From assembly GCA_018402205.1 (NCBI GenBank), contig JAGYIX010000005.1:55202-119201 (forward strand): 64,000 bases of DNA, in the 5' to 3' direction. Position 1 is the stretch's first letter. Every line of letters starts with the position of its first letter. This document shows, one piece after another, positions 4,801-46,889 of this stretch. The notes under the pieces were generated by a model that ran no database searches, had not been told where the DNA came from, and worked only from the letters and a program-made list of their open reading frames with translations. The stretch is from Flavobacteriaceae bacterium. GTDB taxonomy: Bacteria; Bacteroidota; Bacteroidia; Flavobacteriales; Flavobacteriaceae. The translations under genes were made by a program, and so were the position numbers.

Positions 4801-4818
4801 ACCTAATCTTACACACCA

Positions 4819-26496: not shown

Positions 26497-28338
26497 TTAA
26501 GGTCTGTACTGTAAAGCAAAAAATAGATTTCTGCCTGGCATAGAAATTAAACTGGTCTCCCAATAGGATTGATTCAATAAATTGTTTAAACCCATATTTA
26601 ATCTAAGGTCGTTAAGCGTTTTTGAAAGCGTCAAATCAACAACAGTGTAAGACCTGCCGGTCGCGCGCTCTACCCACTTAACCGAGGTGAACATAGAGCT
26701 GGTTTTAGTCCATTCAGCAGCTGCACTAAGCACTAGGTGATGCCTTAAGTCATTATCTATGGAATAGCGAGAAAAGGCAGCCGCATCTTCGCTTAATCGC
26801 TGAGACAAGTACGCGTATGCCACACGAAAATCTACAGGAATATAAGCGCTGCTATTTTTGAAGTACTGGTATTCCACTTCTACGCCTTGGGTTTGAAGTG
26901 CTTGAATATTGTTGGCTTTAAATCGCTGCTCTTCAGACGACTTTACGTAATCAATCAGGTTCGATGAGGTCCTAGAAAACAAAGCGAAAGAGGCCATTGA
27001 ACGTTTTTGATTTATACGAATTCCTAGTTCAATCGTTTCAGCCTCTTCAGCCACCAGATCTGCATTGCCCTCTGTGCTTGGGTCGCTGTAATACAAGTCG
27101 GTAAAGGTCGGAACACGAAATGTCTTGCCCCAGTTTAGATAAGACTTGATTTTGTCGTTGATTCTCCACCCGGCATCTACTCCCGGAAACACCCTTTCAC
27201 CGAAATCAGAAACGTAATTCATCACTAAACCCGGAGTCACATCAAGCTTACTGTTCCATAAAAAAAAGCGGTGCTCGGCAAATAGATTAACCATGTCTCT
27301 TGAGCGCTCTCCTAGGTTGTTGCTTTGTATATTGGTAGACGATAGGTCTATACCTAATCCCGATTTTCCCAAAGAAGACTCGTGGGCTACATCAAATGCT
27401 GCGCCTATTTTATGAGTGATATGCATATTGCGGTAAATCTCAGGTCGATCGCGAACAAACTCATACATATCTTGACCTCTGCGCCAATATATTCTAGGGG
27501 TAAAAGTGGTGCGCTCTGATTGAAATTGCTGGGTTACTGCAACCAAGCTCGCCTGGGTTTCTTCATACTGATCAATAGCCGAAGGGCTGGCATAAAAACC
27601 ATTCGCTCCAAAAGCCCGAGGAGAGAAAAAAGCCAATACTCTAAAGGGTCGTTCTGTTGAGCCCGAAGCCAATGAGACAAACCACTGCTGTTGGCGGTAG
27701 TCGGTGTTGTGCCTATATCCGTCTGATTGGGCGTGGCTGGCGAAGGCCAGCACACGCACTTGATCAGTATTTAGTGAGCCTCGCGCTTGTAGACCTGCCG
27801 TACCAAAAGATCCGCCTTGAATTTCGCCCTGAACTCCAGACTCAAGGGTTCTTTTGGTGACTATATTAATAGCCCCAGAAAAGGCGTTTTGCCCGTAGAC
27901 TCTGGCCGAAGCTCCCCTTACGATCTCAACCCGTTCAATGAGGGCTACCGGAGGTAAAAAATTAGCTAAATGATGGCCCGTTTGAGCGTCTTCTAGAGCG
28001 ATACCATCAATGAGCAGCAGCGTCTGATCGAAGGTGCCTCCTCGTAAATTGAGATCGGCTTGGGTGGGACCCACTCCCCTTCTGCGCACGTCTAGCCCGG
28101 CCACCTGCTGTAAAAAATCTACCAGGTGCAGTACGCCTGATTGCGCGATTGCCTCAGCCGAATACACGGTCACCGACTTAGATTCATTTACGTAAGCTTC
28201 AGCAATGCGCCCTTGTACCACGACCTCCCCTAAAACTTGAGTAGGCAGGCTATCGCTGGGTGCCTCTAGCTGAGCAGATAGCGCAAGAGTGCCTGTCAGA
28301 AAAGCAAAAAAGGCGAGTACAGCAACGGATCGCTTCAT
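26497..28338 (-). CDS. TonB-dependent receptor (small, about BtuB size)
   Basis: Signal peptide. Plug motifs DFLQQVAGLDVRRRG, LNLRGGTFDQTLLLIDGI and VEIVRGASARVYGQNAFSGAINIVTK. Terminal aromatic strand FFALQYRP. Confidence 0.88.
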   Translation of the reverse strand: MKRSVAVLAFFAFLTGTLALSAQLEAPSDSLPTQVLGEVVVQGRIAEAYVNESKSVTVYSAEAIAQSGVLHLVDFLQQVAGLDVRRRGVGPTQADLNLRGGTFDQTLLLIDGIALEDAQTGHHLANFLPPVALIERVEIVRGASARVYGQNAFSGAINIVTKRTLESGVQGEIQGGSFGTAGLQARGSLNTDQVRVLAFASHAQSDGYRHNTDYRQQQWFVSLASGSTERPFRVLAFFSPRAFGANGFYASPSAIDQYEETQASLVAVTQQFQSERTTFTPRIYWRRGQDMYEFVRDRPEIYRNMHITHKIGAAFDVAHESSLGKSGLGIDLSSTNIQSNNLGERSRDMVNLFAEHRFFLWNSKLDVTPGLVMNYVSDFGERVFPGVDAGWRINDKIKSYLNWGKTFRVPTFTDLYYSDPSTEGNADLVAEEAETIELGIRINQKRSMASFALFSRTSSNLIDYVKSSEEQRFKANNIQALQTQGVEVEYQYFKNSSAYIPVDFRVAYAYLSQRLSEDAAAFSRYSIDNDLRHHLVLSAAAEWTKTSSMFTSVKWVERATGRSYTVVDLTLSKTLNDLRLNMGLNNLLNQSYWETSLISMPGRNLFFALQYRP

Positions 28339-31396: not shown

Positions 31397-33711
31397 ATGA
31401 AAGCCCTGTTTAGCCTTGTTTTCAGCCTTGTTTCTTTAGCAACTTTCGCCCAAGAAAAACCCCTTGACTCCCTAGTCAACGAATACGCCAGCCAAGAGGG
31501 GCTCATCACTACCTATTGGCATCCAGAGAAATCGAAGCTGCTGTTGGCTGTAAACGACAGCCTTTTGGGTAAGCCACTGCTTATGGTTACCCGTTACGTG
31601 AGCCTTCCAGCCAACTATTCGGCTTACAGAAATGCCGGATCAAAGACCGCAGAAAGTGTAATTAGCTTTGAGCGAGAGGCCAACAAGATTGTGCTGAAAC
31701 AGCTTTCTTACGTGAATTTGGCAGAAGAAGGCGACCCCATTGCGCAAAGTGTGGTACAGAATAACTTAGCGCCTATTCTTTCTGTTTTTGAAAAAATGAA
31801 TTCCGAGAAGCAGATCGCCCTTTTTGATGCGACCGATTTCTTCTCTAAAGACTCACCCGGATTTAATGCCGTCGGCGAAACCGAAAAAAAGAATTTCAAA
31901 ATCGGATCAATTGATTCCAAACGTTCATTTATCAATGAGGTGCGCAGCTTTCCGTTAAACACAGAGATCACGCACACGCTTACCTATCCTATAGCGGCCG
32001 CTCCACGAAGCAATCGCAGTGAGACCTTTAGCTTCAAGCTCAATCACTCGATCATCGCACTGCCCGAACACCCCATGCCCACCCGAAAGGTTGACCATAG
32101 AGTCGGATGGTTCTCTCTAGAGCAATACAATTATTCTTCAGAGGCGCTTAAATCAGACAACTACCGCATCGCCACTCGCTGGAGGCTAGAGCCTAAAGAC
32201 AAAGAGGCTTACGCCAGAGGAGTACTCTCAGAGCCCATTAAACCCATCGTGTTTTACATAGACCCCGCTACCCCACTAAAATGGCGACCCTATTTTAAGA
32301 AAGGCATAGAAGACTGGAACAGGCCGTTCGAAAAAGCAGGATTTAAAAACGCCATAATCGCTAAGGATCCGCCTACCAAAGAAGAAGACCCAGAATTCAG
32401 CCCCGAAGATGTGCGCTACTCGGTAGTGCGCTACGTGGCTTCTACCACCCGAAATGCCACCGGGCCGAGCGTGAAAGACCCCAGAACCGGAGAAATAATA
32501 GAGAGTGATGTTATCTGGTACCACAACCACTTGCGCTCTTACCGAAACCGCTACCTGCTCGAGACGGGGGCCGCCAATGAGAAGGCGCGTAGCCTAAACA
32601 CTCCTGAAGAAGAGATCGGAGAAATGATGCGCAGAGTCATCGCTCATGAGGTAGGTCACGCCTTGGGTTTACCGCATAATATGAAGGCTAGCTCGGCCTA
32701 TCCTGTTGACTCGTTGCGATCTGCTAGCTTCACCCAAAAATGGGAATTGCCGCCACCATTATGGATTATGCGCGCTACAATTACGTCGCTCAGCCCGGCG
32801 ACAAGGGGATCCGTTTTGTGCGCCAAATGGGGCCCTATGACGACTACGCCATCGAATGGGGGTACCGTTACTTCGAGACGCTCGAAGATGAACAAAAATG
32901 GCTGAAGCAATTTGTCGACCAGCGCAGTCTTGAGCCGGTCTACCAATTTGGTTCTTCGGGTAATGATCCGAATTCACAGACCGAAAACATAGGAGACGAC
33001 CCTGTAAAAGCCACTGCCTATGGGCTGAGCAACCTAAAAATTGTAGCTAAAAATCTCGAAGAGTGGACGACCTACGACGGAGCGACCTATGACGACCTCA
33101 ACGAATTGTACATGGAGCTGATTGGAGTCTACCGCCGCTACATCTATCACGTGGTGTCGGTGGTTGGAGGAGTAAACGAGACCCTGGTGGTAAAGGGACA
33201 GGCGGCGATTCCGTATCAAAATGTAAACAAGGCCAAGCAAAAAGAAGCTCTGGCCTCACTCGACGAGCACCTCTGGAAAACGCAAAAATGGCTATTTGAG
33301 CCAACGCTCATTTCAAAATTTGAGGGCGATGGACACCTTGACCTCATCTCAAATCTGCAAAAAGCGGCGCTTTACAGGTTGCTGAGCACCGATCGCTTAA
33401 ACCGCATGCTTTCAACCACTGTGACTCTTGAAGGCGAGGGACTTCATCCGCATGAGCTTATTGAATTGCTAGCGCAAGGGCTTATGTACAAGAAGGCCCA
33501 GCCCGATCTACTCGAGCGAAACCTTCAGCTGGCATTTATTGAGCGCAGCAAAGAACTGCTTGCCGATGAAAAGGTGCACGCTGAGGTCAAGTCTAGCGTT
33601 TTTAAGCAAAGTGAGTCGCTTAAAAAATGGCTGAAGAAACAAGAGCGCAGCAGCAATGGTGCATTAAGTGGTCATTTCGGCTATGCGCTAAAGCGCTTAA
33701 CGGCAGAGTAA
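31397..33711 (+). pseudogene. secreted zinc-dependent metalloprotease (DUF5117/DUF4953 type), split by a 1-nt frameshift
   Basis: ORFs 31397..32905 (frame 2) and 32740..33711 (frame 1) together rebuild one protein of about 770 aa. HEXXH site VIAHEVGHALGLPHN. The conserved IMDYARYNYVAQPGD block continues in the second frame. The junction is at an A5 run, 32736-32740. Confidence 0.75.
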
Positions 33712-33713
33712 AG

Positions 33714-34157
33714 CTATTTCGAGGCCTTGTACCAGGTTTGGGTGCGTCCAAGCAGTGAGATACCTAAATAGCCACGCACCTTCAAGGTCTGGTCGTCTTC
33801 TAGCGTAAGGGTGCACGAATACTGCTTTCCATTGGCCGGGTCGAGAATTTTTCCGCCGGTCCAGGCTGATCCGTCCCACTCGAGGCCTTCAATGATCGTG
33901 AGACCCTCTATGGGCTTGTCTTTTAAAGCACCTTTGCAAGCTGCACACTGCTTGCCCTTGTCTTCTTCGAGCAACAGTCGCGCGATTTGGCCGTATAGCT
34001 TTCCGCCTTCTACATAAAGGCTGATCTCAGATTTGCGCTGATTCGAAACATCATCGACAGAGACCCAAACGCCTTCGAAGGCCTGTTTTGTTTCGGTCTG
34101 CGCATAGGCGCTAGTTAGGCCAACAAAAAAAACAAGTAAAATAAGTGCGTTTCGCAT
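33714..34157 (-). CDS. DUF2147 domain protein, secreted
   Basis: Signal peptide. GGKILDPANGKQYSCTLTLEDDQTLKVRGYLGISLLGRTQTWYK matches the DUF2147 pattern. Start moved to ATG 34157. Confidence 0.85.
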   Translation of the reverse strand: MRNALILLVFFVGLTSAYAQTETKQAFEGVWVSVDDVSNQRKSEISLYVEGGKLYGQIARLLLEEDKGKQCAACKGALKDKPIEGLTIIEGLEWDGSAWTGGKILDPANGKQYSCTLTLEDDQTLKVRGYLGISLLGRTQTWYKASK

Positions 34158-34168
34158 GGTAATTGGGT

Positions 34169-34843
34169 TTAACGAAGATTGGTGAGCACAGATAACAGAA
34201 GGGGTTCCATGACGGCATATCCGGCCTCGTTGGGGTGAACCGGATCGTACCCCCAATCAGACCTGAGGCCCTTTTGGGCATCGACCATGGCCCTGTAGTA
34301 ATCGACATAGGCCAATTCATAGGTCTTGGCCATATGCTGCAACATGCCGTTCAATTCTACCACCTTTTCGGTCGGATCGATACGCTGCCTCCACGGAAAA
34401 GAGTTGGCCGGAAGCACCGAACAAAGCACCGGAACCACACCATTGGCCAGAGCAAGCTGCACCATGCTCTCAATGTTAGCCGCAATTTCTGTAAGCGAAA
34501 TGGGGCCGGTATTCTCGGCTATGTCGTTTATTCCTGCCAGAATAACCACCATTCTCGGGTTCAAATCAATCACGTCTTGACGAAACCGAAGCAGCATCTG
34601 AGGAGTGGTTTGGCCCCCAATTCCGCGATTAACAAACCCGTGCTCTTGAAAGAATTCCGGACGCATAGAGAGCCATCCTTGGGTTATCGAGTTTCCCATG
34701 AACACCACGCCTATTTGATCTGATGCAGCGCTAATAGAATCATTTTGCGTTTTAAAATAACTCATCTGGGCCCAGTCTTGAGCATGAACAGTTACAGAGC
34801 CTAAAAACAAGGCCAGCAGCAACATAGTTAACAGTCTATTCAT
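34169..34843 (-). CDS. secreted SGNH/GDSL-type esterase
   Basis: SGNH blocks FMGNSITQGW (I), GIGGQTT (II), LAGINDI (III) and DPVHPN (V). Confidence 0.85.
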   Translation of the reverse strand: MNRLLTMLLLALFLGSVTVHAQDWAQMSYFKTQNDSISAASDQIGVVFMGNSITQGWLSMRPEFFQEHGFVNRGIGGQTTPQMLLRFRQDVIDLNPRMVVILAGINDIAENTGPISLTEIAANIESMVQLALANGVVPVLCSVLPANSFPWRQRIDPTEKVVELNGMLQHMAKTYELAYVDYYRAMVDAQKGLRSDWGYDPVHPNEAGYAVMEPLLLSVLTNLR

Positions 34844-35609
34844 AACTATTGTCTTTATCTACCGCGCACAAATCTACAATGAGCTCGGCAATCTTATCGG
34901 TTACGTCTGCAATATATCGGGCTCCCTTTTCAGCCGAAGAGAGGCTGGGGTCTCCAATGCCCGTATCTTCACTTACCTCAGACCATTTTCGTTCGGCCCA
35001 TGCCCATTTTTCTCTTATGGCCTTGACCTTGTGCTTTTTTTCAGCGCCGCTTCCGGCTTGATCCAAAGGCAGCACTAATTCAGGATGAAGCTGCATCATG
35101 ATTGAGGTTTCCATCTCGTCCGCGTGGTCACCAGCCTTTTCAAAATATACCCTCTTATCTAGCATGTGAAACCAACTGCAAGTCACCAGCAACATCTCAG
35201 GAAAGAGCAGTCCAAGCTCCCGCAAGTGAGTCTTAAAGTCGTTTCCGCCATGGCTATTGAATACCAATAGCTTTTTAAGTCCTTGTCTATTGAGCACCGT
35301 AATCAGGTCTTTGAGAATGGCAAATTGGGTGCTCGGGTTGAGGTTCATATCGAGGTATATGTCGCTCTGGCCCGTGTTCACTCCAAAGGGAACGGTCGGA
35401 AGAATCACAAAATTGCCCCCCTTGTCATAGGCCTTCTGACCGGCGATTCTGAGCAATCCATCGGCCTCATACACATCAGTGCCATAAGGCAGGTGATAGT
35501 TATGGGCCTCTGTAGCAGCCCAACCGAGTATGGCTAGATCATATCTATGCGTCTTAAGGCGCTTCCAGTTGGACTCTTTGAGGTCAAAAAATTCGGCAGC
35601 GTCAGACAC
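34836..35609 (-). CDS. creatininase-family metal amidohydrolase (no signal peptide)
   Basis: Motifs AATEAHNYHLPYGTD, VFNSHGGN and GDHADEMETS are typical of the creatininase fold. GTG start at 35609. 8-nt overlap with the downstream esterase gene. Confidence 0.8.
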   Translation of the reverse strand: MSDAAEFFDLKESNWKRLKTHRYDLAILGWAATEAHNYHLPYGTDVYEADGLLRIAGQKAYDKGGNFVILPTVPFGVNTGQSDIYLDMNLNPSTQFAILKDLITVLNRQGLKKLLVFNSHGGNDFKTHLRELGLLFPEMLLVTCSWFHMLDKRVYFEKAGDHADEMETSIMMQLHPELVLPLDQAGSGAEKKHKVKAIREKWAWAERKWSEVSEDTGIGDPSLSSAEKGARYIADVTDKIAELIVDLCAVDKDNSYE

Positions 35610-35626
35610 TTTTAGTTACTTAAAGA

Positions 35627-36973
35627 TTAGAAAGAACGATAATCCCCGCTGAGATACTGGTTGGCCTCAGCTTCTTCAAAGGCAGACGCTTCTTTGTTGT
35701 AATGCAATGTTTTTCCAGGAAAGCGCCCAGCAATAACCCCCAACAGAATAGTTTCTGTTAGACGAGCTGAGTAATCAAATGGAGCAGAAGTCTCCGCTGT
35801 ACCTAGACAGGCATCGATGAACTGATGGTAGTGCTTAGGCGATTCACCCGCGTAGTCACGAACCGGCTCGCCCATAACGCCCTCAGTGTCAAAGTCTGAA
35901 ATGGCATAATCTGTATAGGCCCCTTCTTCAATGAGTTTAGGAAGCTGTTGAAAGTGCGGAAGCAGTAATCTTCTTCCGTCTTCTCCGATAAACATGGCCC
36001 CTTGATCGGGTAAGGCATCACCATTAGGGAGCATGAGCTCGTCACTCATCACCGGACCTTCGACTCCGTCGTACCACACCCACTCAAATTCAGGAGTAGT
36101 ATAGGCGGTTCCTTCAAACGTGTAGTGCACCTCGTTGCGCTCAGGATAACCGTATCCGTTAGATTCGCGGCAATAGGTGGTTATAGTGTTCGGAACATCA
36201 ATATCAAGGGCGTTGTAGGGTGTATCAAAAATGTGAACCCCCATGTCTCCCAATGTGGCGCATCCGTAATCCATGAGCTTTCTCCAGTTCATCGGATGGT
36301 AATAGCCTTCTTTATAAGGCCTTTCAGATGAAGTGCCCAACCACAGATTCCAGTCTAATCTTTCAGGAACCGCATCGGCGCCCTCAGGAATAGGGCCGTC
36401 GTAGCCCCAGTTTTTATTGGACCAGGCAATTACCTTGTTCACCTTGCCCACAATTCCTTTGCGAATGAGCAGTGTGGCTAGCTTGTAATCGTAAAAAGAG
36501 TGCACCTGAATACCCATCTGCGTTACCAATCCTTTTTCATTGGCCACCTTACGCATTTCTCTAGATTCTGACACGTAATGCGTTAAGGGCTTTTGGCAGT
36601 ATACAGGCTTGTTGTATTCCATGGCTAGCATCGAGGCGGGTGCATGCGTATGGTCGGGAGTAGACACCACCACAGCATCGATCTGTTCGCCATATTGCTC
36701 CATTAAAGTGCGGTAGTCAGCAAAAATCTGTGCATCCGGGAAAAGGGCATGGGCCGCTTTCAGATGCTCGCTATCTACATCGCAGAGTGCAGCAACCTTA
36801 ACCTGTGGGTGAGAAGCAATAGCCTCAAGGTCGGCCATTCCCATGTTTCCGACCCCAATGTGGGCTGTTCGTATCATTCTTGGCGCCGAAGAAGCGCACG
36901 ACCAAATAGACAACGGAAGGGCTGAGGCGCCAGCTGCCAAGGTCATTGATTTTAAAAACTCTCTTTTCTTCAT
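35627..36973 (-). CDS. Tat-type exported Gfo/Idh/MocA oxidoreductase (glycoside dehydrogenase-like)
   Basis: N-terminus MKKREFLKSMTLAAGASALPL is a KR variant of the RRxFLK Tat motif. Rossmann IRTAHIGVGNMG and CQKPL motif. Confidence 0.8.
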   Translation of the reverse strand: MKKREFLKSMTLAAGASALPLSIWSCASSAPRMIRTAHIGVGNMGMADLEAIASHPQVKVAALCDVDSEHLKAAHALFPDAQIFADYRTLMEQYGEQIDAVVVSTPDHTHAPASMLAMEYNKPVYCQKPLTHYVSESREMRKVANEKGLVTQMGIQVHSFYDYKLATLLIRKGIVGKVNKVIAWSNKNWGYDGPIPEGADAVPERLDWNLWLGTSSERPYKEGYYHPMNWRKLMDYGCATLGDMGVHIFDTPYNALDIDVPNTITTYCRESNGYGYPERNEVHYTFEGTAYTTPEFEWVWYDGVEGPVMSDELMLPNGDALPDQGAMFIGEDGRRLLLPHFQQLPKLIEEGAYTDYAISDFDTEGVMGEPVRDYAGESPKHYHQFIDACLGTAETSAPFDYSARLTETILLGVIAGRFPGKTLHYNKEASAFEEAEANQYLSGDYRSF

Positions 36974-36975
36974 GA

Positions 36976-37743
36976 TTATAATTCTTTGATTTTAATATTT
37001 CTAAACCACAATGAGCTACCGTGATCTTGTAGCCCGATGAATCCCTTTTTAAAAATTCCGTAGTCAGGAGCAAGCCCCCATTTACCACCTGATTTCTTAG
37101 CCTCCCAGTCTTCAGACCAGGGCACAAAACTCAGCAGCATTTCTCCGTTTAACCAGTGTTCAACGCGCTCAGGGGTAAACACGATTCGTGACGAATTCCA
37201 CTCACCGGCCGGGTTGAGTTTTTTCTTTGCAGGGTCGGGCACGTACATGGCGTAGTCGGCACCTGTTGACTGCAAGGGTTGCAGCTTTTCAGGATTCTCG
37301 GTAACCCCTATACTCTTGTTGTAACCCGTAATATCGTGATAGTCGGTATAATTAAGATCATCGATGAGCTGATATTCGGGAGACACTTCAGGAATACCAT
37401 TGTACCCTTCGACTACATGGTAAAATATTCCGCTGTTACCTCCAGACGGGATCTTCCACTCTAGGTAAAGCTCAAAGTTTTCAAATTCCTTGGCGCCATA
37501 GATGAGGTCGCGACTTCCTTTGTAATCGTAGTCTTGCTCTTTGACCATTTCGGTGCTGAAGGTGAGCTCTCCTTCGACGATTCCCCAGCCCGGAGGCAGT
37601 CGGTCACCATTGTAGGCACGCCAACCGTCTAGTGAGGTTCCGTCAAAAAGCATCATCCAGTCGGTTTCAACTTGTTTAGAAGACTCTTCAGCGCACGAAA
37701 GCACGAGCACAGCGGTCAGCAATAAAACGCTTAATTTTTTCAT
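36976..37743 (-). CDS. DUF1080 (3-keto-disaccharide hydrolase fold) lipoprotein
   Basis: Lipobox VLSC. Motifs LFDGTSLDGWRAY, FELYLEWKIPSGGNSGIFY, AGEWNSSRIVF and IGLQDHGSSLWFRNIKIKEL. Start moved to ATG 37743. Confidence 0.88.
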   Translation of the reverse strand: MKKLSVLLLTAVLVLSCAEESSKQVETDWMMLFDGTSLDGWRAYNGDRLPPGWGIVEGELTFSTEMVKEQDYDYKGSRDLIYGAKEFENFELYLEWKIPSGGNSGIFYHVVEGYNGIPEVSPEYQLIDDLNYTDYHDITGYNKSIGVTENPEKLQPLQSTGADYAMYVPDPAKKKLNPAGEWNSSRIVFTPERVEHWLNGEMLLSFVPWSEDWEAKKSGGKWGLAPDYGIFKKGFIGLQDHGSSLWFRNIKIKEL

Positions 37744-37750
37744 GTTTTGC

Positions 37751-38338
37751 TTATAATTCAGTGAGGTACATATTTCTCCATTTGACTTTGATTCCTCCGC
37801 CGTCGTGAATTTGCAGGGCGATTCCACCCTTACCCTTTCCGATCTTTTCGTCGGTTAACGTCACCATCTCGTGCCCATTTAGGTAAGTAGTCACGGTGTC
37901 GCCGTTACAAATGATTTTCATCTTGTTCCATTCGCCCATCTTAAGGTACGCATCTTTGGCCTTATCAGGCTTAATAAGCCATCCGCGACCATAAGACTCG
38001 TATATCCCCCCGGTGTCGTGATCAGGCGGAGCTACCTCTACCTGCCATCCGCTTACCACTGTTCCGTCAACGGTTGATCTAAAGAAGACCCCGCTGTTGC
38101 CGTCTGCCTCCTGCAAAAATTCTAATTCGAGTGAAAAATTGTCGTAATAGGCATTGGTTGAGAGGTATCCGTAGGCCTTGTCAGGGCCGCTCTCGCACAC
38201 CAGAAGCCCGTCTTCAACATACCATTTTTCGGTGCCGTTTATCGTCCACCCCTCTAGATTTTCACCGTTAAAAAGAGCGGTTTGAGCACTTATACCTAGG
38301 GTAATTAAAGCGAGTAGAGCTGTGAGTAAGTTTTTCAT
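37751..38338 (-). CDS. DUF1080 (3-keto-disaccharide hydrolase fold) protein, secreted
   Basis: Signal peptide. Motifs LFNGENLEGW, FSLELEFLQEADGNSGVFFR, GEWNKMKIICNG and IALQIHDGGGIKVKWRNMYLTEL. Confidence 0.88.
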   Translation of the reverse strand: MKNLLTALLALITLGISAQTALFNGENLEGWTINGTEKWYVEDGLLVCESGPDKAYGYLSTNAYYDNFSLELEFLQEADGNSGVFFRSTVDGTVVSGWQVEVAPPDHDTGGIYESYGRGWLIKPDKAKDAYLKMGEWNKMKIICNGDTVTTYLNGHEMVTLTDEKIGKGKGGIALQIHDGGGIKVKWRNMYLTEL

Positions 38339-38349
38339 TTAAGGTTGAT

Positions 38350-39438
38350 TTATAGTTTGATGTAAATTTTCTTCTTGAATAGCCACCAGGTAGGTAAACT
38401 AATCACACCGACATATAGTAGGGCGTAGAGTAGCGAGGCCAGTTTAGGGGCCACTTTGATCGAGACCAATTGCTCCATAAAAACTTTGTTTAGAGCTACC
38501 CCTATAAGAAAGTCACTGTAAAAAATAGAGACTAGTAGACTAGAAAGCGCATAAGACACGATCGGATTTTTGCCAAATGCCTCAACCAAGGTAAATGCCT
38601 TTTTAGGTTCATCTCGGTCAAAAAACAAGCTGCAAATAACCCACCCTTGCATAGATGCTCCGGCCGTAATTAGAGTAAATGATGTCGACCACAAGGGCTT
38701 GTTAATGGGAAAAAGATAACTTAAAGCATATCCGCCAGCCAAAAACATTGCTCCGATAATCATCATGCGAAGCATTTTTTTTGAATGTTCTTCTTCTTTT
38801 AAAAAATGATGGGCAGCTGTCATTCCCAATAGCGCAGAACCTACTGCTCCAACGGTGCTCAGTATTCCCTCAGGATCCCATGTTTTTTGCCACAACACTC
38901 CAGGAAGCATAAAGCTATCTATATAATTGGCCCAATTAAACATGGGTTGTGAGAGATCTGGTGCGCCTATTCCAGGAACCGGAATAAAAACCATGATCAC
39001 TGTGTATAAGGCTAACAAGATTATGGCCAATTTTAGCTGATTAGATCGCTTGGTGAACAAATAAATACTGGCACAGATAAAATAGACTATAGCTATTCGG
39101 GGAAGCACCCCCACATAGCGAATATGGGTTAAATCAAAATCGGGCCATATCCACAAAAAAATACCGACAGCATAAATTTTTGCGCTTCTGAAAGCGATTT
39201 TTCTAAAGGTCTGAGATGCGGGTTGCTCTTCGATGCGACTGTGCATGGCTAGAACAATCGAGACCCCTACGATAAACAAGAAGCTAGGGAAGACGAAGTC
39301 GGTGGGTGTAATACCGTTCCAGTCGGCATGCAATAAGGGCGCGTACACATGACCCCAACTGCCTGGAGTATTCACCACAATCATAAGCATGATCGTTAGC
39401 CCTCTTAAAATATCTACCGAACGAACGCGGGCACTCAT
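38350..39438 (-). CDS. heparan-alpha-glucosaminide N-acetyltransferase-like membrane protein (DUF1624/DUF5009; NagX-like)
   Basis: About 10 TM helices. The N-terminus SVDILRGLTIMLMIVVNTPG...LLHADWNGITPTDFVFPSFLFIVGVS parallels the HGSNAT region carrying the acetyl-accepting His. Start moved from TTG 39444 to ATG 39438. Confidence 0.75.
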   Translation of the reverse strand: MSARVRSVDILRGLTIMLMIVVNTPGSWGHVYAPLLHADWNGITPTDFVFPSFLFIVGVSIVLAMHSRIEEQPASQTFRKIAFRSAKIYAVGIFLWIWPDFDLTHIRYVGVLPRIAIVYFICASIYLFTKRSNQLKLAIILLALYTVIMVFIPVPGIGAPDLSQPMFNWANYIDSFMLPGVLWQKTWDPEGILSTVGAVGSALLGMTAAHHFLKEEEHSKKMLRMMIIGAMFLAGGYALSYLFPINKPLWSTSFTLITAGASMQGWVICSLFFDRDEPKKAFTLVEAFGKNPIVSYALSSLLVSIFYSDFLIGVALNKVFMEQLVSIKVAPKLASLLYALLYVGVISLPTWWLFKKKIYIKL

Positions 39439-39541
39439 ATTCAAGAATAACTATTAGGGTTTGCGCTTTAACATTTTACACTTAGCGGTCTTGTTTTTCT
39501 GCGGTATCTTTAAGTAAACGTAGAAAATTGCTCTTAATATT

Positions 39542-40813
39542 ATGAAAAATGCTCTCGGTATCCTAAAAAACCTGAAGCTTACTGCGGTCTTTGTGGTAGC
39601 CTTCAGCTTGTTAGCCTTTGGGCAAGACAGCTCATTACTTACCTTGAGAGGAAAAGTCTATGATGCGCAATCGAATGAAGCGCTGCCTCTAGCTTCTATT
39701 CGGCTTGAAGGCACTTCATACGCAACAGTAAGTAATGACGAGGGGGTTTTTAGCCTAAAATTTGAATCTGCAGAGCGCCCTACGCATTTAGTTGTGTCTT
39801 ACTTGGGTTACCGTAGCACTCGAGTAGCACTTTCAGAAGTAAACGATCTCGATAGTGAAATCAGTATAGGCCTACTTAGCGACAGCATAAGACTTGAAGG
39901 GGTTGATGTAAACAATCCGGAGGACGCTAAGAGTATTGTGCTAAAAATGCTGGATAACTACGACGCCATGAAACCGCTTCAGCCCAAAACGGCAGTCGCT
40001 TTCTTTAGGGAGCGTATTAATAGACGCAATCGCAACTTATCTATCACAGAAGCTGCCATAGAAATTCAAAAAGACCACCTCAAAGAAGGGCTTAACGGAG
40101 CCTATGTAATTGAATCCCGAAAGCGAAACGACTACAAACCCTTAGACACCATAGCACTTAAGCTTCAGGGCGGCCCCTATAACCTTATTTACCTCGATCT
40201 GCTGAGCCATAGAAACGATATTCTAGACGACGAAAGCATTGATCAATACCTGTTTACCCTCACCGGAAAGGTACGGTACAAAGGTGAAGACGTCTACATC
40301 GTTCACTTTGAGCAAAATCCAGAGATTTTCGATCCGCTCTATAAAGGAGATCTGTACATCACTGTTGAAAAGCACCTACTGTCGAAGGCAAACTTTGAGC
40401 TGAACATCACCAACAGCGAACAAGCGGCCAAGCTCTTTGTGCGCAAAAAGCCAAAAACGCTCAGAATAGAGCCCACTAAGGTGGCTTATAGAATCGATTA
40501 TCAGACAGCCCGAGACGAACCCGTTCAGGTCTATGCCGATCTTCAAATGGAATTCACCATTAATTGGAGAAACCGACTCTTCAATCGCAACTACACAGTG
40601 CTGGCTGAAATGGCCTTCACCCGATGGGACGACGCCAAGAGAGAAGAGGTAAAGCCGCGCAATGAAAGGCTCAGACCAACAGTAATTATGGCTGATTCTG
40701 AAAGTGGATTTAGCGATCCCAATTTCTGGAGAAACTACAATGTGATCGAGCCCGACCAAGACATCGAATCTATACTGAAGCGAATCGAACGCCAATTAAG
40801 ACGAGTGCGCTAA
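39542..40813 (+). CDS. carboxypeptidase-regulatory-like (CarboxypepD_reg) domain protein, secreted; C-terminal domain unknown
   Basis: Signal peptide, then LRGKVYDAQSNEALPLASIRLEGTSYATVSNDEGVFSLKF, a typical CarboxypepD_reg beta-sandwich. The remaining roughly 300 aa are unassigned. Confidence 0.65.
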   Translation: MKNALGILKNLKLTAVFVVAFSLLAFGQDSSLLTLRGKVYDAQSNEALPLASIRLEGTSYATVSNDEGVFSLKFESAERPTHLVVSYLGYRSTRVALSEVNDLDSEISIGLLSDSIRLEGVDVNNPEDAKSIVLKMLDNYDAMKPLQPKTAVAFFRERINRRNRNLSITEAAIEIQKDHLKEGLNGAYVIESRKRNDYKPLDTIALKLQGGPYNLIYLDLLSHRNDILDDESIDQYLFTLTGKVRYKGEDVYIVHFEQNPEIFDPLYKGDLYITVEKHLLSKANFELNITNSEQAAKLFVRKKPKTLRIEPTKVAYRIDYQTARDEPVQVYADLQMEFTINWRNRLFNRNYTVLAEMAFTRWDDAKREEVKPRNERLRPTVIMADSESGFSDPNFWRNYNVIEPDQDIESILKRIERQLRRVR

Positions 40814-40920: not shown

Positions 40921-42846
40921 ATGGCCATTATTACTCCTACAGAGCTAGCTTATAAAGCACCTGGAACACACGAAGAAAACCGATTTGAAAAGCTACATAA
41001 TGTCGTTGTTTCTTCTGCCGCCAAAGGTTCTGAGTTAATTGCACAAGAAATAGCCGATCTAATCCGCAATAAACAAGCGAAAAACAAGAAATGCGTGCTC
41101 GGTTTAGCTACGGGATCGTCTCCACTAAGCGTGTATGCCGAATTGGTGCGTATGCACAAAGAGGAGGGGTTAAGCTTTGAAAATGTGGTCACCTTTAATC
41201 TGGATGAATACTGGCCGATGAATAAAGAAAATCTGCAGAGTTATCACCACTTCATGCATGAGAACCTCTTCGACCATATCGATATTAAACCCGAAAACAT
41301 TAACCTGCCCGATGGAGAAGTAAAACCATCTCAAGTTAAGGCCTTTTGTCAAGGATATGAGGCTAAAATTGAAGCCCTAGGAGGTCTAGATTTTCAGCTT
41401 TTAGGCATCGGAAGAACAGGGCATATTGGATTCAACGAGCCGGGCTCAAACCAAAACTCTAGAACCCGATTGGTCAACCTAGATCATATCACTAGAGAAG
41501 ATGCTGCCGAAGGATTTCAAGGTCTAGAATTCGTTCCTAAGCGGGCGATTACTATGGGAATAGCCACTGTGCTTTCAGCCAAGCGCGTCGTACTTATGGC
41601 CTGGGGGCAAAAAAAGAGTGCTGTAATTCACCTAGCCGTCGAAGGGGCAATAACAAGTACCCTTCCGTCTTCTTTTTTACAGCTGCACAAAAACACCACT
41701 TTAGTTTTAGACGAAGAGGCAGCCGCTGAACTTACTCGCATTAAAACGCCTTGGTTGGTTCAAACCTGCGAGTGGAATGACAAGTTAAAGTACCAAGCAG
41801 TAGTTTGGTTATGTCGAAAAACGGGTAAGTCTGTACTTAAACTAACAGAGTCTGACTACAATGAAAACGCCTTAGCTGATCTGCTCGAAACGCAGTCGAT
41901 TTACGACCTCAATATTGAGATTTTTAATAGACTTCAGCACACCATTACCGGCTGGCCTGGAGGCAAACCCGATGCCGACGACTCGCACCGCCCAGAGCGT
42001 GCTAGGCCTAAATCGAAACGGGTCATCATCTTTAGTCCGCACCCTGACGATGACGTCATTTCTATGGGGGGTACACTTGACCGCCTAATTTCGCAGGGGC
42101 ATGAGGTTCATGTGGCTTATCAAACTTCTGGAAGTATCGCTGTTTCTAACCAAGAGGCATTAAAATTCCTCGAAGTTGCTTGTGATATGATGCTAGGCGC
42201 CGAGAGCAATAACCTCAAAGATCTCAGAAACGAGATCGATCAACTTAAAGACGGCGAGATTCCTTCGACCGAAATCCGCAATCTAAAAGCCATTATTCGT
42301 CAGCGCGAAGCCATTGCCGCCACCCGATATCTAGGACTTCCTGACGAGAACGTTCACTTCTTGAAATTGCCGTTTTACGAGACGGGTGCTGTCAAAAAGG
42401 CTCCTATATCACAAGACGATATAGATATCTTGAATCACTTAATCAAAAGTATTCGCCCGCATCAAATCTATGCGGCTGGCGATTTGGCCGACCCGCATGG
42501 AACGCACCGATTATGTATAGATGCCCTGCAACAATCGCTAAGTCAACTGCGCAAAGAGCCCTTCTTAAAAGATTGCTGGGTATGGCTATATCGCGGAGCA
42601 TGGCACGAGTACGAGCCTTACGAAATTGACATGGCGGTGCCTATGAGCCCTGCTCAAGTCAGAAGAAAGCGACGCGCTATCTTTTTTCACCAAACTCAAA
42701 AAGACGGAGTTATGTTTCAAGGAAACGACCCTCGAGAATTTTGGGTGCGGGCAGAAGATCGCAACCGAGAAACTGCGGCACTATACCGCGACCTAGGTCT
42801 TTCAGACTACGCAGCCATCGAAGCCTTTAAGCGTTATTACTACTAA
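40921..42846 (+). CDS. nagB: glucosamine-6-phosphate deaminase, long form fused to a LmbE/PIG-L-type deacetylase domain
   Basis: NagB motifs GLATGSSPLSVY, FNLDEYW and GIGRTGHIGFNEPGS. C-terminal PIG-L motif IIFSPHPDDDVISMGG. Confidence 0.9.
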   Translation: MAIITPTELAYKAPGTHEENRFEKLHNVVVSSAAKGSELIAQEIADLIRNKQAKNKKCVLGLATGSSPLSVYAELVRMHKEEGLSFENVVTFNLDEYWPMNKENLQSYHHFMHENLFDHIDIKPENINLPDGEVKPSQVKAFCQGYEAKIEALGGLDFQLLGIGRTGHIGFNEPGSNQNSRTRLVNLDHITREDAAEGFQGLEFVPKRAITMGIATVLSAKRVVLMAWGQKKSAVIHLAVEGAITSTLPSSFLQLHKNTTLVLDEEAAAELTRIKTPWLVQTCEWNDKLKYQAVVWLCRKTGKSVLKLTESDYNENALADLLETQSIYDLNIEIFNRLQHTITGWPGGKPDADDSHRPERARPKSKRVIIFSPHPDDDVISMGGTLDRLISQGHEVHVAYQTSGSIAVSNQEALKFLEVACDMMLGAESNNLKDLRNEIDQLKDGEIPSTEIRNLKAIIRQREAIAATRYLGLPDENVHFLKLPFYETGAVKKAPISQDDIDILNHLIKSIRPHQIYAAGDLADPHGTHRLCIDALQQSLSQLRKEPFLKDCWVWLYRGAWHEYEPYEIDMAVPMSPAQVRRKRRAIFFHQTQKDGVMFQGNDPREFWVRAEDRNRETAALYRDLGLSDYAAIEAFKRYYY

Positions 42847-42856: not shown

Positions 42857-44368
42857 ATGTCTATCGCCAGAAACCTTTGCCTTTCGCTCTTTTCGGCCCT
42901 TATGCTAGCCGCATGCAGCCAACCTAAGCAAGACGGATCTGCCTACGAGGCACTTATGCCCATGGCCGAAACAATCCTCCTTAAAGAAGGGGTGTTCGCG
43001 CTTGAGGAATCGATAACTATTGGTTTTGAAGGCTTTTCTGTTGAAGCCTCTGAATCGTTTATAAAGGTAATCGGTGATCAGGCCCTAGCACAGGGATTCG
43101 CTGTGGTTAAAGAGGAAGCCATAAAAAGCGATCTAAGCTTTAGCATTGAGCCTAACTTAGAGCCCGAGCAATATGTGCTAGAAATAGGGACAGAAGGAAT
43201 AGACATTAAAGCAGGCGCAGCCTCTGGAGCTTATTTTGGATGGCAAACGCTTCGACAAATACTCTTGCTGCAAGAAGGTCAGCCCAACGCGAATGTGCTT
43301 AGAGCGGCAGAAATCAGCGATAAACCCGCTTATGAATACCGCTCTGTAATGCTAGACGTGGCGAGGCATTTCTTTGAGCCAGAGGTAGTCAAACAGCTCA
43401 TCGATCAGCTCACCCTTTACAAGGTGAATACCTTACATCTTCATCTTTCTGACGATCAAGGCTGGCGCATTGAAATTAAAAAATGGCCAAACCTAACTGC
43501 TCACGGGGGGCTTACAGAAGTTGGAGGCACTGATGGCGGATACTTCACTCAAGAACAATACAATGACCTAGTGGCCTATGCCAAAAGCAGATTCATTGAC
43601 GTAGTACCCGAGATAGACCTTCCAGGACACACCAACGCCGCACTTTCAAGCTACCCAGAATTGAATTGCGATGGCATAGCCCCAGAGCTGTACACTGGCA
43701 TTGAAGTTGGGTTTTCAACCCTCTGTGCCGACAAAGAAATCACCTATACTTTTTTAAACGACGTATTCGAAGAGCTCGCAGCTATGACTCCTGGGCCCTA
43801 TATTCATATTGGAGGAGACGAGTCGCATGTAACTTCAGAAGAAGACTACGTGAAGTTAGTAGATTTTGCTCTCGATAAAGTGAGATCTTTGGGCAAAACC
43901 CCCGTGGGATGGGACGAAATAGCCCATGGCGCTGTAGACCAGACAACGGTCTCGCAGTACTGGGCAAGTCAAGAAAACACCGAGAAGGCTTATAAAAAAG
44001 GAGCAAAGCTCATCATCTCTCCGGCCATTCACGCTTATCTAGACATGAAATACGACTCGCTCACCCCAATTGGGCTTAAATGGGCCGGATATCTGAGTAT
44101 AGACAAAGCATACGATTGGTCGCCTGACGCACTAGTTGAAGGGGTTTCTGCCGACCAAATCATTGGTACCGAAGCCCTGCTTTGGACAGAAACCGTAGCA
44201 ACCGTCTCAGATATTCAGTATCTTATGTTTCCCAGAGTGCTCGGAATCGCTGAAATCGCCTGGTCTAAAAAGGAAAAGCGCAGTTTAGCTTCTTATAAAG
44301 CTAGACTCGAAAGCCACCTTAAACTATTAGACCGATTACAGATCGGCTATTACAAGGGTTTAGAGTAA
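42857..44368 (+). CDS. beta-N-acetylhexosaminidase (GH20), lipoprotein
   Basis: Lipobox LMLAAC. Motifs MLDVARHF, LHLHLSDDQGWRIE and HIGGDE (catalytic Asp-Glu pair), plus LLWTE. Confidence 0.9.
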   Translation: MSIARNLCLSLFSALMLAACSQPKQDGSAYEALMPMAETILLKEGVFALEESITIGFEGFSVEASESFIKVIGDQALAQGFAVVKEEAIKSDLSFSIEPNLEPEQYVLEIGTEGIDIKAGAASGAYFGWQTLRQILLLQEGQPNANVLRAAEISDKPAYEYRSVMLDVARHFFEPEVVKQLIDQLTLYKVNTLHLHLSDDQGWRIEIKKWPNLTAHGGLTEVGGTDGGYFTQEQYNDLVAYAKSRFIDVVPEIDLPGHTNAALSSYPELNCDGIAPELYTGIEVGFSTLCADKEITYTFLNDVFEELAAMTPGPYIHIGGDESHVTSEEDYVKLVDFALDKVRSLGKTPVGWDEIAHGAVDQTTVSQYWASQENTEKAYKKGAKLIISPAIHAYLDMKYDSLTPIGLKWAGYLSIDKAYDWSPDALVEGVSADQIIGTEALLWTETVATVSDIQYLMFPRVLGIAEIAWSKKEKRSLASYKARLESHLKLLDRLQIGYYKGLE

Positions 44369-45369: not shown

Positions 45370-46146
45370 ATGCAGCAAAAACAATCGATACTCATAACGG
45401 GATCCACCTCAGGTATTGGTTTCGCCACAGCGGCCGCACTGTTGCAAAAAGGGCACCGGGTTTACCTAAACGGACGTTCAACAGAGACTGTAGAAAGTGC
45501 GCTTAAGTCTATAAAAAACCAACATCCAAAGGCCGATGTCGATGCAGTCGTATGTGATTTCTCTAAAGAGATCGATTTAACAAAATTTCCGCCCCACCTA
45601 GACGTACTGATCAATAATGTGGGCATTTATACCTCTCAATCTTTTTACGACACCTCAGACCAAGATTGGCTTAAACAATTTGAAGTGAATTGCCTTAGTG
45701 GGGTGCGATTGAGCCGTCATTACCTCAAGCCTATGTTAAAGGCCAATTTCGGACGTATACTTTTCATATCTAGCGAATGCGCCTATTTAGCCCCCGAAGA
45801 CCTTATTTCTTATAGCGCCACCAAAGCGGCTATTCACGCATTGTCGCGAGGGCTATCGCAGCTAACACGAGGCAGCGGGGTAACTGTCAATACGATAGTT
45901 CCTGGGTCTACCCTTACTGAAGGGGCAGAATCTTTTATAGCCGCTAAGGCAAAAGCCCAGCAAGAGCAGGCTGAAAAAGTGGCTAGAAATTTTATCCGAA
46001 CAGAACGGCCAAACTCACTCATTGAACGCTTTGCGCGTACTGAAGAGGTGGCTAATCTCATCGCCTTTTACGCTAGTAGCGAGTCGAGTGCGGTTAACGG
46101 ATCTGTTATTTTTTGCGAAGGCGGAAGCACAAACGCAACTTATTAA
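45370..46146 (+). CDS. short-chain dehydrogenase/reductase (SDR)
   Basis: TGxxxGxG (ITGSTSGIG), NNVG and YSATKAA (YxxxK). Confidence 0.88.
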   Translation: MQQKQSILITGSTSGIGFATAAALLQKGHRVYLNGRSTETVESALKSIKNQHPKADVDAVVCDFSKEIDLTKFPPHLDVLINNVGIYTSQSFYDTSDQDWLKQFEVNCLSGVRLSRHYLKPMLKANFGRILFISSECAYLAPEDLISYSATKAAIHALSRGLSQLTRGSGVTVNTIVPGSTLTEGAESFIAAKAKAQQEQAEKVARNFIRTERPNSLIERFARTEEVANLIAFYASSESSAVNGSVIFCEGGSTNATY

Positions 46147-46157
46147 GCCCCTTTTCT

Positions 46158-46889
46158 ATGATACAATTTGAAGTTTGTGCAAATTCATTCACCTCGGTGC
46201 AAAACGCCCAAGAGGCAGGAGCGCATCGTGTAGAACTCTGTGCAGAACTTGGAGTCGGTGGCCTAACTCCGTCTTTTGGACTCATCGAAAAGGTAGGTGA
46301 AGAACTCAATATCAAGGTCAATCTGCTCATACGCCCCCGAAGCGGAGACTTTGTATACAACGACGAAGAGTTTGACGTTATGATGCGCGATATTCGAAAG
46401 GCCATTGACCTTGGGGTCAATGCCATTGTTTGCGGAGTGCTGCAATACGACAACACTTTAGACCTAAGGCGTACTGCCCTACTGAGAGAGGCCTGTAGCA
46501 ATGTAGAATTTACTTTTCACCGCGCCTTTGACTTAGTAAACGATCCGCATTCTACCCTTGAGCAACTGGCCTCTATCGGAGTAACACGTATTTTAAGCTC
46601 TGGCCAAAAATCCACTGCACTAGAAGGCATTGAATTACTAGCAGCGCTAAAAGACCAAACTGCGGTAAAGATCATGCCAGGCTCTGGAATCAATGCACAG
46701 AACGTTCAAAGTTTTGTCTCAAAGGGGTTTGAAGAAATACATTTTTCTGGAACACTAATGAGCGCTACAAGTGGCGATAGCCCAAAAATTCCATTTATTA
46801 CGCCATCGCTTATCGCTGAGTCAGCTCATGCCACCTCAGACCTAAACAAGCTCAAAAAAATCATAGATGCGGCTAAAGGCCTAAGCTAA
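46158..46889 (+). CDS. cutC: CutC family protein
   Basis: FEVCANSFTSVQNAQEAGAHRVELCAELGVGGLTPS and FHRAFD motifs are typical of CutC TIM barrels. Start moved to ATG 46158. Confidence 0.82.
   Translation: MIQFEVCANSFTSVQNAQEAGAHRVELCAELGVGGLTPSFGLIEKVGEELNIKVNLLIRPRSGDFVYNDEEFDVMMRDIRKAIDLGVNAIVCGVLQYDNTLDLRRTALLREACSNVEFTFHRAFDLVNDPHSTLEQLASIGVTRILSSGQKSTALEGIELLAALKDQTAVKIMPGSGINAQNVQSFVSKGFEEIHFSGTLMSATSGDSPKIPFITPSLIAESAHATSDLNKLKKIIDAAKGLS

Follow-up and report, generated by a model that had tools for sequence, protein, structure and literature searches.

The operon described here, from a Flavobacteriaceae bacterium (GenBank assembly GCA_018402205.1, contig JAGYIX010000005.1), is a lineage-specific mosaic that has formed around an old three-gene core. 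This core, DUF1080a-DUF1080b-GFO, encodes two different proteins of the DUF1080 family and a Gfo/Idh/MocA oxidoreductase, called GFO in the following. From sequence comparison we assume, with moderate confidence, that the core module acts as a periplasmic, redox-neutral, non-Koshland exo-glycosidase of the BT2157/BT2158 type that has been drawn, in this lineage, into a neighbourhood of amino-sugar salvage genes. The operon is located in a stretch of 64,000 nucleotides (nt), the window, and consists of seven consecutive minus-strand open reading frames (ORFs) at positions 33714-39438 when the most plausible start codons are taken. They encode, in this order, a NagX/HGSNAT-like membrane protein, DUF1080a, DUF1080b, GFO, a creatininase-fold protein, an SGNH esterase and a DUF2147 protein; from gene to gene the spacing is 11, 7, 2, 17, -8 and 11 nt, and the genes are presumably co-transcribed. 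An earlier note on this DNA had reported seven same-strand ORFs with spacings of -8 to +17 nt, which the ORF coordinates confirm, and its seven domain assignments were all recovered by Pfam, every one well above the gathering score. Its claim that all proteins except the creatininase-fold and the polytopic protein carry leaders also held when leaders were called by eye and with a hydropathy scan: Sec-type signals are present in DUF1080a (…GISAQ/T), the SGNH esterase (…VHAQ/D) and the DUF2147 protein (…AYAQ/T), DUF1080b has a lipobox (VLSC), and no leader was seen in the creatininase-fold protein.

The 3-keto route of glycoside cleavage (oxidation, elimination and hydration) has come to be recognised only recently as an alternative to classical glycosidases, and most of its characterisation so far concerns gut Bacteroides and Alistipes. 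BT2158 is a Gfo/Idh/MocA protein with a twin-arginine translocation (Tat) signal that is required for growth on trehalose and other disaccharides, and the DUF1080 protein BT2157 degrades 3-keto-trehalose (PMC8121099, Liu et al. 2021); DUF1080 proteins have also been tied to the cleavage of 3'-ketolactose (PMC9007349, Price et al. 2022). AL3/BT2158 oxidises C3 by means of tightly bound nicotinamide adenine dinucleotide (NAD), beta-linked aglycones are eliminated by the TIM-barrel enzyme AL1/BT2156, AL2/BT2157 performs both the elimination of alpha-linked aglycones and the hydration of the 2-hydroxy-3-keto-glycal, and AL3/BT2158 is re-oxidised by the resulting 3-keto sugar (bioRxiv 10.1101/2024.03.25.586180, Nasseri et al.). 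Glycosides modified at position 3 escape hydrolysis by this system (bioRxiv 10.1101/2024.03.25.586180). The earlier note had assigned the two DUF1080 proteins to the 3-keto-disaccharide hydrolases; the family is correct and the hydrolase label is outdated: for members of the BT2157/AL2 type the current description is 3-keto-alpha-glycoside 1,2-lyase and 2-hydroxy-3-keto-glycal hydratase (bioRxiv 10.1101/2024.03.25.586180).

That the GFO+DUF1080 pair belongs to this chemistry, as the earlier note had proposed, is borne out by the best model and the best structures found for GFO. Among the NCBIfam models the glycoside 3-dehydrogenase family BT_2158_fam scores highest (268.5 bits, residues 3-439 against positions 2-436 of 487; the equivalog cut-off of 750 is not reached), followed by weaker matches to inositol, levoglucosan and xylose dehydrogenase models. 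The best solved structures are 8TDF and 8TDH (132 bits), which belong to the depositions of the Nasseri et al. series, with the 'glucuronide-3-dehydrogenase' 8TDI weaker, and Pfam identifies GFO_IDH_MocA (65 bits) and GFO_IDH_MocA_C2 (35 bits). After mapping of the chain numbering to that of the paper, Q156, W189, D243 and H247 of GFO correspond to Q161, W195, D248 and H252 of AL3. A lysine (K187) takes the position of AL3 Arg192, a residue that holds O5/OH-6 (bioRxiv 10.1101/2024.03.25.586180), and a QKP is found where AL3 has EKP. All these positions, K187 and QKP included, are invariant in 88 of 88 aligned GFO sequences, the window's among them. At its N-terminus, MKKREFLK, GFO has the twin-arginine motif with K-R in place of R-R. 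As [KR]-R-x-F-[LI]-K is found at the N-terminus of all 88 sequences, with R-R in about a quarter, the K-R form is a natural variant of the twin-arginine leader in this family.

GH109 is a Bacteroidota NAD-dependent alpha-N-acetylgalactosaminidase with the Gfo/Idh/MocA fold. The assignment of GFO to GH109 was rejected, since none of the 34 PDB matches with E <= 1e-5 is a GH109 entry (2IXA and 2IXB, as we take them to be). Both share the fold; GH109 breaks the glycosidic bond of a 2-acetamido sugar by C3 oxidation and elimination and, in contrast to the present module, does so as a single enzyme for all steps. The chemistry of C3 oxidation is thus feasible on N-acetylhexosamines (HexNAc).

DUF1080b matches the structures 3U1X (164 bits) and 3OSD, 8RR2 and 8TDA (~108 bits) and keeps all eight conserved BT2157 residues, namely E103, N134, E164, Q166, Y190, K245, Q273 and H275 (list from bioRxiv 10.1101/2024.03.25.586180). 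The mapping used the 3OSD chain and one offset, 25, for the whole set; the tyrosine alone required a shift by one residue, which is backed by the 3H3L alignment. DUF1080a is homologous to the DUF1080b family (hhalign probability 99.3%) and retains the motifs GNSG, GGIYE and LQIH (the GNSG, Y and Q-x-H elements); it lacks the long finger that bears the E-x-Q motif and has the BT2157 residue set in part only. It belongs to a shorter, distinct DUF1080 subfamily. In the PDB, DUF1080a finds its best match in 4JQT, a protein of two domains: the N-terminal one resembles DUF1080a and the C-terminal one DUF1080b. In most of the closer GFO loci DUF1080a precedes DUF1080b. Fusions of both types in the gene order of the window exist in three loci (L073:11521-12960, L078:11412-12857 and L079:11547-12959), where they adjoin a second GFO gene, followed by GH20 in L073 and L079. 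The fusion, a Rosetta-stone pattern that is also seen in 4JQT, indicates that the two DUF1080 types act together. A repeat search had as its sole result a 30-nt direct repeat (36973-37002 and 37748-37777, 77% identity). This repeat represents the paralogous 3' ends of the two DUF1080 genes (shared coding of the C-terminal ...RN.....EL) and is not a regulatory element.

The module shares with the clusters BT2156-BT2160 of Bacteroides thetaiotaomicron and AL1-AL5 of Alistipes a Tat-type GFO with full-length homology, the catalytic Asp and His and the NAD-side Gln and Trp, a lipoprotein DUF1080 with the eight BT2157 residues, the periplasmic location and the arrangement as adjacent same-strand genes. 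In contrast to these clusters, the window operon has no TIM-barrel (sugar-phosphate-isomerase-like) 3-keto-beta-glycoside 1,2-lyase, the nearest AP_endonuc_2 gene (15778-16752) being ~17 kb away, and neither the operon nor its flanks contain a second cytoplasmic oxidoreductase (BT2159/AL4) or a SusR/DUF6377 regulator. It has instead the short type-a DUF1080, its GFO differs by QKP for EKP, by Lys for Arg192 and in score (268 versus 750 bits), and the module is joined to genes for the NagX-like, SGNH, creatininase-fold and DUF2147 proteins. Since the BT2157 and BT2158 families are common to both, while the TIM-barrel lyase, the second oxidoreductase, the regulator and equivalog scores are missing, we regard the module as a variant of that system. 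With the LacABC/ThuAB-type systems of Caulobacter and Agrobacterium (PMC9007349) it shares the formation of a 3-keto glycoside in the periplasm and its subsequent cleavage by a secreted DUF1080 protein; those dehydrogenases, however, are membrane-bound and cytochrome c-dependent (PMC8121099) and not Tat-exported, NAD-bound Gfo/Idh/MocA proteins, and genes for them are absent from the window operon. The AP_endonuc_2 gene (minus strand) encodes a xylose-isomerase-like TIM-barrel protein of the superfamily that also includes the AL1/BT2156 lyase, and lies beside a fused trehalose-6-phosphate synthase/phosphatase gene (16790-19000, minus strand); a GH15/trehalase-like gene (19031-20815, plus strand) is in the same neighbourhood.

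The age of the parts of the operon can be read from its relatives. A scan with GFO, limited to one genome per species, gave 80 loci of 60-95% identity from Flavobacteriaceae, Chitinophagaceae, Saprospiraceae and Cytophagales. Their ORFs were all translated and searched with the window proteins (contexts of +/-10 kb), and the neighbouring genes were mapped on a neighbour-joining (simple distance) tree of GFO. In 75 of the 80 loci GFO is accompanied by one or more DUF1080 genes, in most of them as a free-standing unit of two or three genes, and unsupervised clustering of the flanking ORFs found no other family in more than 18 loci. The full seven-gene order with its flanks, CarbReg-NagB-GH20 on one side (CarbReg being a CarbopepD_reg-like gene) and a Met-zincin gene on the other, is present only in five loci of uncultured Flavobacteriaceae (L007-L011), whose GFO is 91-95% identical to that of the window, and in the metagenome contig L090; a 7-kb contig of a metagenome-assembled genome (MAG), L006, shows its downstream half. 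As the order is identical in six independent assemblies, it is not an assembly artefact. The sister clade (~74% identity; L022-L026, L028, L055, L083, L174) has GH20-NagB head-to-head with DUF1080a-DUF1080b-GFO-SGNH, followed by a convergent Met-zincin gene, and no NagX, CarbReg, creatininase or DUF2147 gene. These four are therefore additions in the window's clade, to which creatininase, DUF2147 and CarbReg are confined as neighbours of the module. SGNH accompanies the module in two sister clades and is nearby in a third; NagX adjoins it in three lineages. Together with the contexts of the creatininase and SGNH orthologues described below, the GFO tree shows the mosaic origin of the locus: four of the seven operon genes came in recently, and the seven-gene 'pathway' is largely a recent accretion. 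The earlier note had named a lack of conservation in related genomes as an outcome that would speak against its proposal; conservation is indeed lacking for the seven-gene unit and is present for the three-gene core. Of the co-occurrence that it had suggested looking for, NagX-like genes recur in the three lineages mentioned, and the creatininase gene recurs in the window's clade only.

The fold of the creatininase-fold protein is clear (best structure 3LUB, 193 bits) and the motifs that we take to be the metal ligands of creatininase are kept; no NCBIfam cut-off is reached for the characterised members of PF02633, neither for creatininase (55.7 of 235 bits) nor for MftE (50.8 of 172) or IolN (35.3 of 245). 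The protein is predicted to be a cytoplasmic, metal amidohydrolase-type enzyme. A function as IolN-like diketo-ring hydrolase on a 3-keto sugar was set aside in view of the IolN score and the lacking conservation with the module: among the GFO loci the gene is restricted to L007-L011 and L090. Its orthologues are highly conserved (65-73% identity in Algoriphagus, Cecembia and Flavobacteriaceae) and stand beside Asparaginase_2 and CutC genes (Algoriphagus), a catalase-peroxidase gene (Flavobacteriaceae MAG) or DUF5916 and nitroreductase genes (TARA contigs). A literature search for creatininase-family proteins in glycan loci gave nothing beyond the papers cited here. The SGNH esterase shows the blocks GNS, G, N and DxxH; it matches 3P94, 4PPY, 4HF7 and 4IYJ (173-194 bits), all structural-genomics proteins of unassigned function, and weakly the sialate O-acetylesterase 6NJC (43.6 bits). 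Orthologues of SGNH in other genomes (~60% identity; 59-73% is the range jointly with creatininase) are mostly found amid housekeeping genes, and DUF2147 is linked to the module in the window's clade only.

Several observations on the surroundings of the creatininase orthologues were made in passing. In Algoriphagus aquimarinus (L001:8101-10762) the orthologue is head-to-head with Asparaginase_2 and CutC, and CutC is also part of the plus-strand operon of the window, which hints at a loose recurring set of glycoprotein and amino-sugar genes. In freshwater contigs (L155, L159 and L162, also L154) the orthologue directly follows the gene of an N-sulfoglucosamine sulfohydrolase-like sulfatase (SGSH_C), ~8.5 kb downstream of GH20-NagX-SIS, with GH2 and D-serine-dehydratase-like genes between the sulfatase-creatininase pair and NagX; the set of creatininase, sulfatase and HGSNAT-like NagX recalls, by analogy, the enzymes of lysosomal heparan sulfate degradation. 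Genes for DUF5916/CBM9-like proteins recur near the creatininase orthologue (L167-L170:8001-10950 and L003:101-2299; 11 nt downstream of it in TARA contigs) and near DUF1080/GFO, where they stand between DUF1080b and GFO in L127/L130 and just after GFO elsewhere (L037, L063).

The NagX-like protein, whose gene is the only one of its kind in the window, itself looks functional and is a putative transmembrane glucosamine N-acetyltransferase. It matches the NCBIfam model NagX_SO_3504 (NF046061) over nearly the full length (165.7 bits, residues 14-363 against positions 11-368 of 369; equivalog cut-off 480 bits), Pfam finds HGSNAT_cat (35.8 bits) and DUF5009 (30 bits), and a hydropathy scan reveals at least six strongly hydrophobic segments. 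In the alignment to human HGSNAT (8VKJ/8JKV, 77 bits) His37 corresponds to the catalytic His297, the residue that carries the acetyl group (PMC9007349). NagX of Shewanella, Caulobacter and Echinicola, a homologue of HGSNAT, has been tied to glucosamine utilisation by fitness data from five bacteria (PMC9007349). The window protein resembles it in model coverage, polytopic nature, size, catalytic histidine and the proximity of GH20 and NagB genes. It differs in that its gene heads a DUF1080/GFO operon, head-to-head with CarbReg-NagB-GH20, whereas relatives of 45-55% identity usually belong to a CarbReg-GH20-NagX-SIS cluster: in a metagenome scan with the NagX-like protein, a long GH20 gene was directly upstream of NagX in 43 of 80 NagX loci, often preceded by a CarbopepD_reg-like gene and with an SIS_2 protein encoded downstream. 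At the start of the window (1-1625, plus strand) the C-terminal part of a long GH20 (CHB_HEX_C) reads in frame and without a stop into an SIS_2 domain, which suggests either a true fusion or the loss of an intervening stop codon. As NagX is absent between GH20 and SIS at this place, in contrast to GH20-NagX-SIS in many related contigs, and as the sole copy heads the DUF1080/GFO operon, a relocation of NagX is suggested. A different trio is found near ~10-12 of the NagX loci (L122, L143, L149, L151, L156 and others; clusters c10, c11 and c13). It comprises a Tat-signal Gfo/Idh/MocA protein, a NapC/NirT cytochrome c-FGE-sulfatase fusion and a Tat-signal xylose-isomerase-like TIM barrel, and is another periplasmic sugar-oxidation module.

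Amino-sugar genes also adjoin the module elsewhere. When the GFO sequences were grouped into lineages (37 clusters at 80% identity), NagX, NagB or GH20 was located at most 8 kb from the module in 7 of the 37, in at least five different arrangements. NagX is directly upstream of DUF1080a-DUF1080b-GFO at three separated places of the GFO tree: in the window's clade, in mostly Arcticimaribacter-labelled MAGs and related contigs that are nested among relatives without NagX, and in the distant pair L127/L130 with the order NagX-SIS-DUF1080a-DUF1080b-CBM9-like protein-GFO. Other arrangements are SusC-SusD-DUF1080a-DUF1080b-GFO followed by a convergent GMC oxidoreductase gene and NagB (L046/L058), the one-strand order GH92-GH2-GH20-DUF1080b-GFO, a set typical of N-glycan degradation (L074), and a succession of TRAP transporter, DUF1080b, GFO, fused DUF1080, second GFO, GH20 and DUF7133-cytochrome c protein (L073/L079). 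The link between the module and amino sugars is suggestive, not established; the earlier note's assumption that the operon feeds the nagB-GH20 operon receives some support from these comparisons.

We propose the following reaction sequence for the module. The Tat-exported GFO with its tightly bound NAD would oxidise the sugar at the non-reducing end at C3, a DUF1080 protein would eliminate the aglycone in a 1,2-lyase reaction, a DUF1080 protein would hydrate the resulting 2-hydroxy-3-keto-glycal, and GFO would finally reduce the 3-keto sugar, by which the NAD is regenerated. DUF1080a probably replaces the TIM-barrel beta-lyase and would supply the missing lyase or hydratase step. The likely role is the periplasmic trimming of amino-sugar oligosaccharides such as fragments of chitin or chitosan, N-glycans or peptidoglycan. 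The NagX-like protein probably N-acetylates periplasmic glucosamine (GlcN), free or terminal, to N-acetylglucosamine (GlcNAc) at the expense of cytoplasmic acetyl-CoA. The SGNH esterase probably strips O-acetyl groups by which C3 oxidation or GH20 would be hindered; an O3-acyl group would block the dehydrogenase. GH20 and NagB would then process the products. We assume that the locus grew by addition of NagX-like upstream, NagB and GH20 on the divergent side and SGNH downstream, with creatininase-fold and DUF2147 genes inserted later; these last two could not be placed in the route and are treated as late passengers.

Some of our results weigh against this proposal. GFO and the NagX-like protein are far below the respective cut-offs and are thus family members, not equivalogs, whose specificities may differ from those of BT2158 and NagX. 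The contact of AL3 to OH-2 (Tyr349) could not be mapped, as the C-terminal third of GFO does not align to the solved structures, and a tolerance for 2-acetamido or 2-amino groups is not readable from the sequence. L127/L130 entered the seven positive lineages through the NagX search and are biased by ascertainment, and as the window's clade and its sister share an origin, about five independent cases are left. The chance expectation of about one lineage is a rough estimate from gene density and not a calculated null, and in Bacteroidota glycan genes are clustered anyway. Finally, in 30 of the 37 lineages no amino-sugar gene is nearby, and the ancestral substrate may therefore be a neutral glycoside. 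The latter consideration leads to the alternative that the module acts on neutral glucosides or disaccharides (derived from trehalose, sucrose or laminarin) and that the amino-sugar neighbours are a by-product of glycan genes clustering, without a substrate in common. In line with this explanation, glucosides, mannosides and disaccharides are the substrates of the characterised relatives, the module is free-standing in most loci, and the window encodes trehalose synthesis and a GH15 trehalase-like enzyme. The NagX, NagB and GH20 neighbours, however, recur independently in at least five architectures, and several of these (L074, L073, L127/L130, Arcticimaribacter MAGs) are contiguous and lie on one strand; roughly one such lineage would be expected by chance. 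We regard action on neutral glycosides without an amino-sugar context as rather unlikely, although it deserves more weight than the alternatives that follow.

The model from which this study started, that all seven genes form one dedicated oxidative pathway for an O-acylated or N-unsubstituted amino-sugar glycoside with the creatininase-fold and DUF2147 proteins as functional steps, now appears improbable. It could draw on the tight spacing, on the identical order in six related assemblies, on the recurrence of amino-sugar genes near the module and on the four freshwater contigs with a creatininase orthologue near GH20-NagX-SIS, a hint of an amino-sugar role. Tight spacing is no proof of a shared pathway, however; the full set is confined to close relatives, the sister clade manages with DUF1080a-DUF1080b-GFO-SGNH alone, and the orthologues of creatininase and SGNH stand beside unrelated and housekeeping genes, respectively. 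The creatininase-fold protein is leaderless, whereas the proposed chemistry is periplasmic, and no role in the route could be supported for it. Even less probable is that no glycoside is cleaved at all and that the periplasmic GFO oxidises a free sugar, an inositol or some other polyol, with binding or accessory functions for the DUF1080 proteins. The sub-threshold BT_2158 score, the weak matches to inositol, levoglucosan and xylose dehydrogenases and the DUF1080 domains known in other or non-catalytic roles (an endo-xanthanase/lichenase, cited in PMC9007349) would allow this; the best full-length match to the glycoside 3-dehydrogenase family and to AL3 structures, the complete BT2157 active-site set of DUF1080b and the strict GFO+DUF1080 pairing, which mirrors characterised systems, argue against it. 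In the opposite direction, one may go beyond the exo-glycosidase that we favour and suppose that DUF1080a-DUF1080b-GFO is specialised for HexNAc or hexosamine termini, that type a is a new class of lyase and that NagX acts with the module; by analogy with lysosomal heparan sulfate breakdown, sugars would then be acetylated across the membrane and afterwards cleaved oxidatively. We consider this specialisation improbable at present. If true, it would provide a route for GlcN-terminated or O-acetylated fragments of chitin, N-glycans and peptidoglycan that are beyond the reach of GH20. In the literature collection searched, no amino-sugar-directed version of the multi-enzyme 3-keto pathway and none with this gene combination was found; a beta-GlcNAc thioglycoside was included in the screen of Nasseri et al., and hits are reported for every substrate and not described (bioRxiv 10.1101/2024.03.25.586180).

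Environmental Flavobacteriaceae, Chitinophagaceae, Saprospiraceae and Cytophagales thus share a conserved compact variant with a Tat-type GFO, two DUF1080 types and no TIM-barrel lyase, which has repeatedly come to adjoin amino-sugar genes. If the link to amino sugars is true, the 3-keto pathway would extend to the turnover of chitin, chitosan, N-glycans or peptidoglycan and thereby to aquatic carbon and nitrogen cycling, and the type-a DUF1080 subfamily would obtain a function.

Table 1. Genes of the operon and of its divergent neighbour in the window.
Feature	Position	Strand	Basis or remark
NagX/HGSNAT-like polytopic membrane protein, 362 aa, first gene of the operon	38350-39438	-	Pfam, NCBIfam
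DUF1080a, secreted, 195 aa	37751-38338	-	Pfam 3keto-disac_hyd, 137 bits
DUF1080b, lipoprotein, 255 aa, BT2157/AL2 type	36976-37743	-	Pfam 3keto-disac_hyd, 154 bits
GFO, Tat-type (K-R variant) Gfo/Idh/MocA oxidoreductase, 448 aa	35627-36973	-	Pfam, NCBIfam, PDB
Creatininase-fold protein, GTG start, leaderless	34836-35609	-	Pfam Creatininase, 174 bits
SGNH/GDSL esterase, secreted	34169-34843	-	Pfam Lipase_GDSL_2, 101 bits
DUF2147 protein, secreted, last gene of the operon	33714-34157	-	Pfam DUF2147, 107 bits
Intergenic region between NagX-like and CarbopepD_reg-like genes, ~100 nt	39439-39541	divergent	Presumed promoter region of both operons
CarbopepD_reg-like (CarbReg) gene	39542-40813	+	Pfam; divergent from the operon
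Long NagB (deaminase and PIG-L domain)	40921-42846	+	Pfam
GH20 hexosaminidase	42857-44368	+	Pfam

The flanking genes are as the earlier note had given them, and its statement that the locus has neither a SusC/SusD pair nor a regulator is correct: the TonB-dependent receptor genes of the window (11421-13478 and 26497-28338) are without a SusD partner and the closest regulator gene, of the LysR type, is at 53196-54071. A sigma-70/terminator scan of positions 33400-39700 gave counts no higher than in shuffled sequence, with a scanner that does not model Bacteroidota promoters, and an Rfam scan of the whole window gave no match. Past GH20 the plus strand continues with PhyH, SDR and CutC (46113-46889). 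At the other end, the stop codon of the DUF2147 gene is 2 nt from that of the convergent Met-zincin gene (DUF5118/DUF5117/DUF4953; 31397-33711, plus strand). The latter is split into the overlapping ORFs 31397-32905 and 32740-33711, while in the relatives L006 and L174 it is a single ORF of ~770-790 aa; the split is a frameshift, either of a pseudogene or by sequencing error. Two further GFO genes of the window (2150-3292 and 9616-10743) delimit a glycan-type cluster on the plus strand that follows GH20-SIS (2150-10743) and encodes, besides these two Gfo/Idh/MocA oxidoreductases, a serine carboxypeptidase S10, a DUF5916/CBM9 protein (4819-6987) and a GH3 enzyme with a PA14 domain (7036-9588) among its members.

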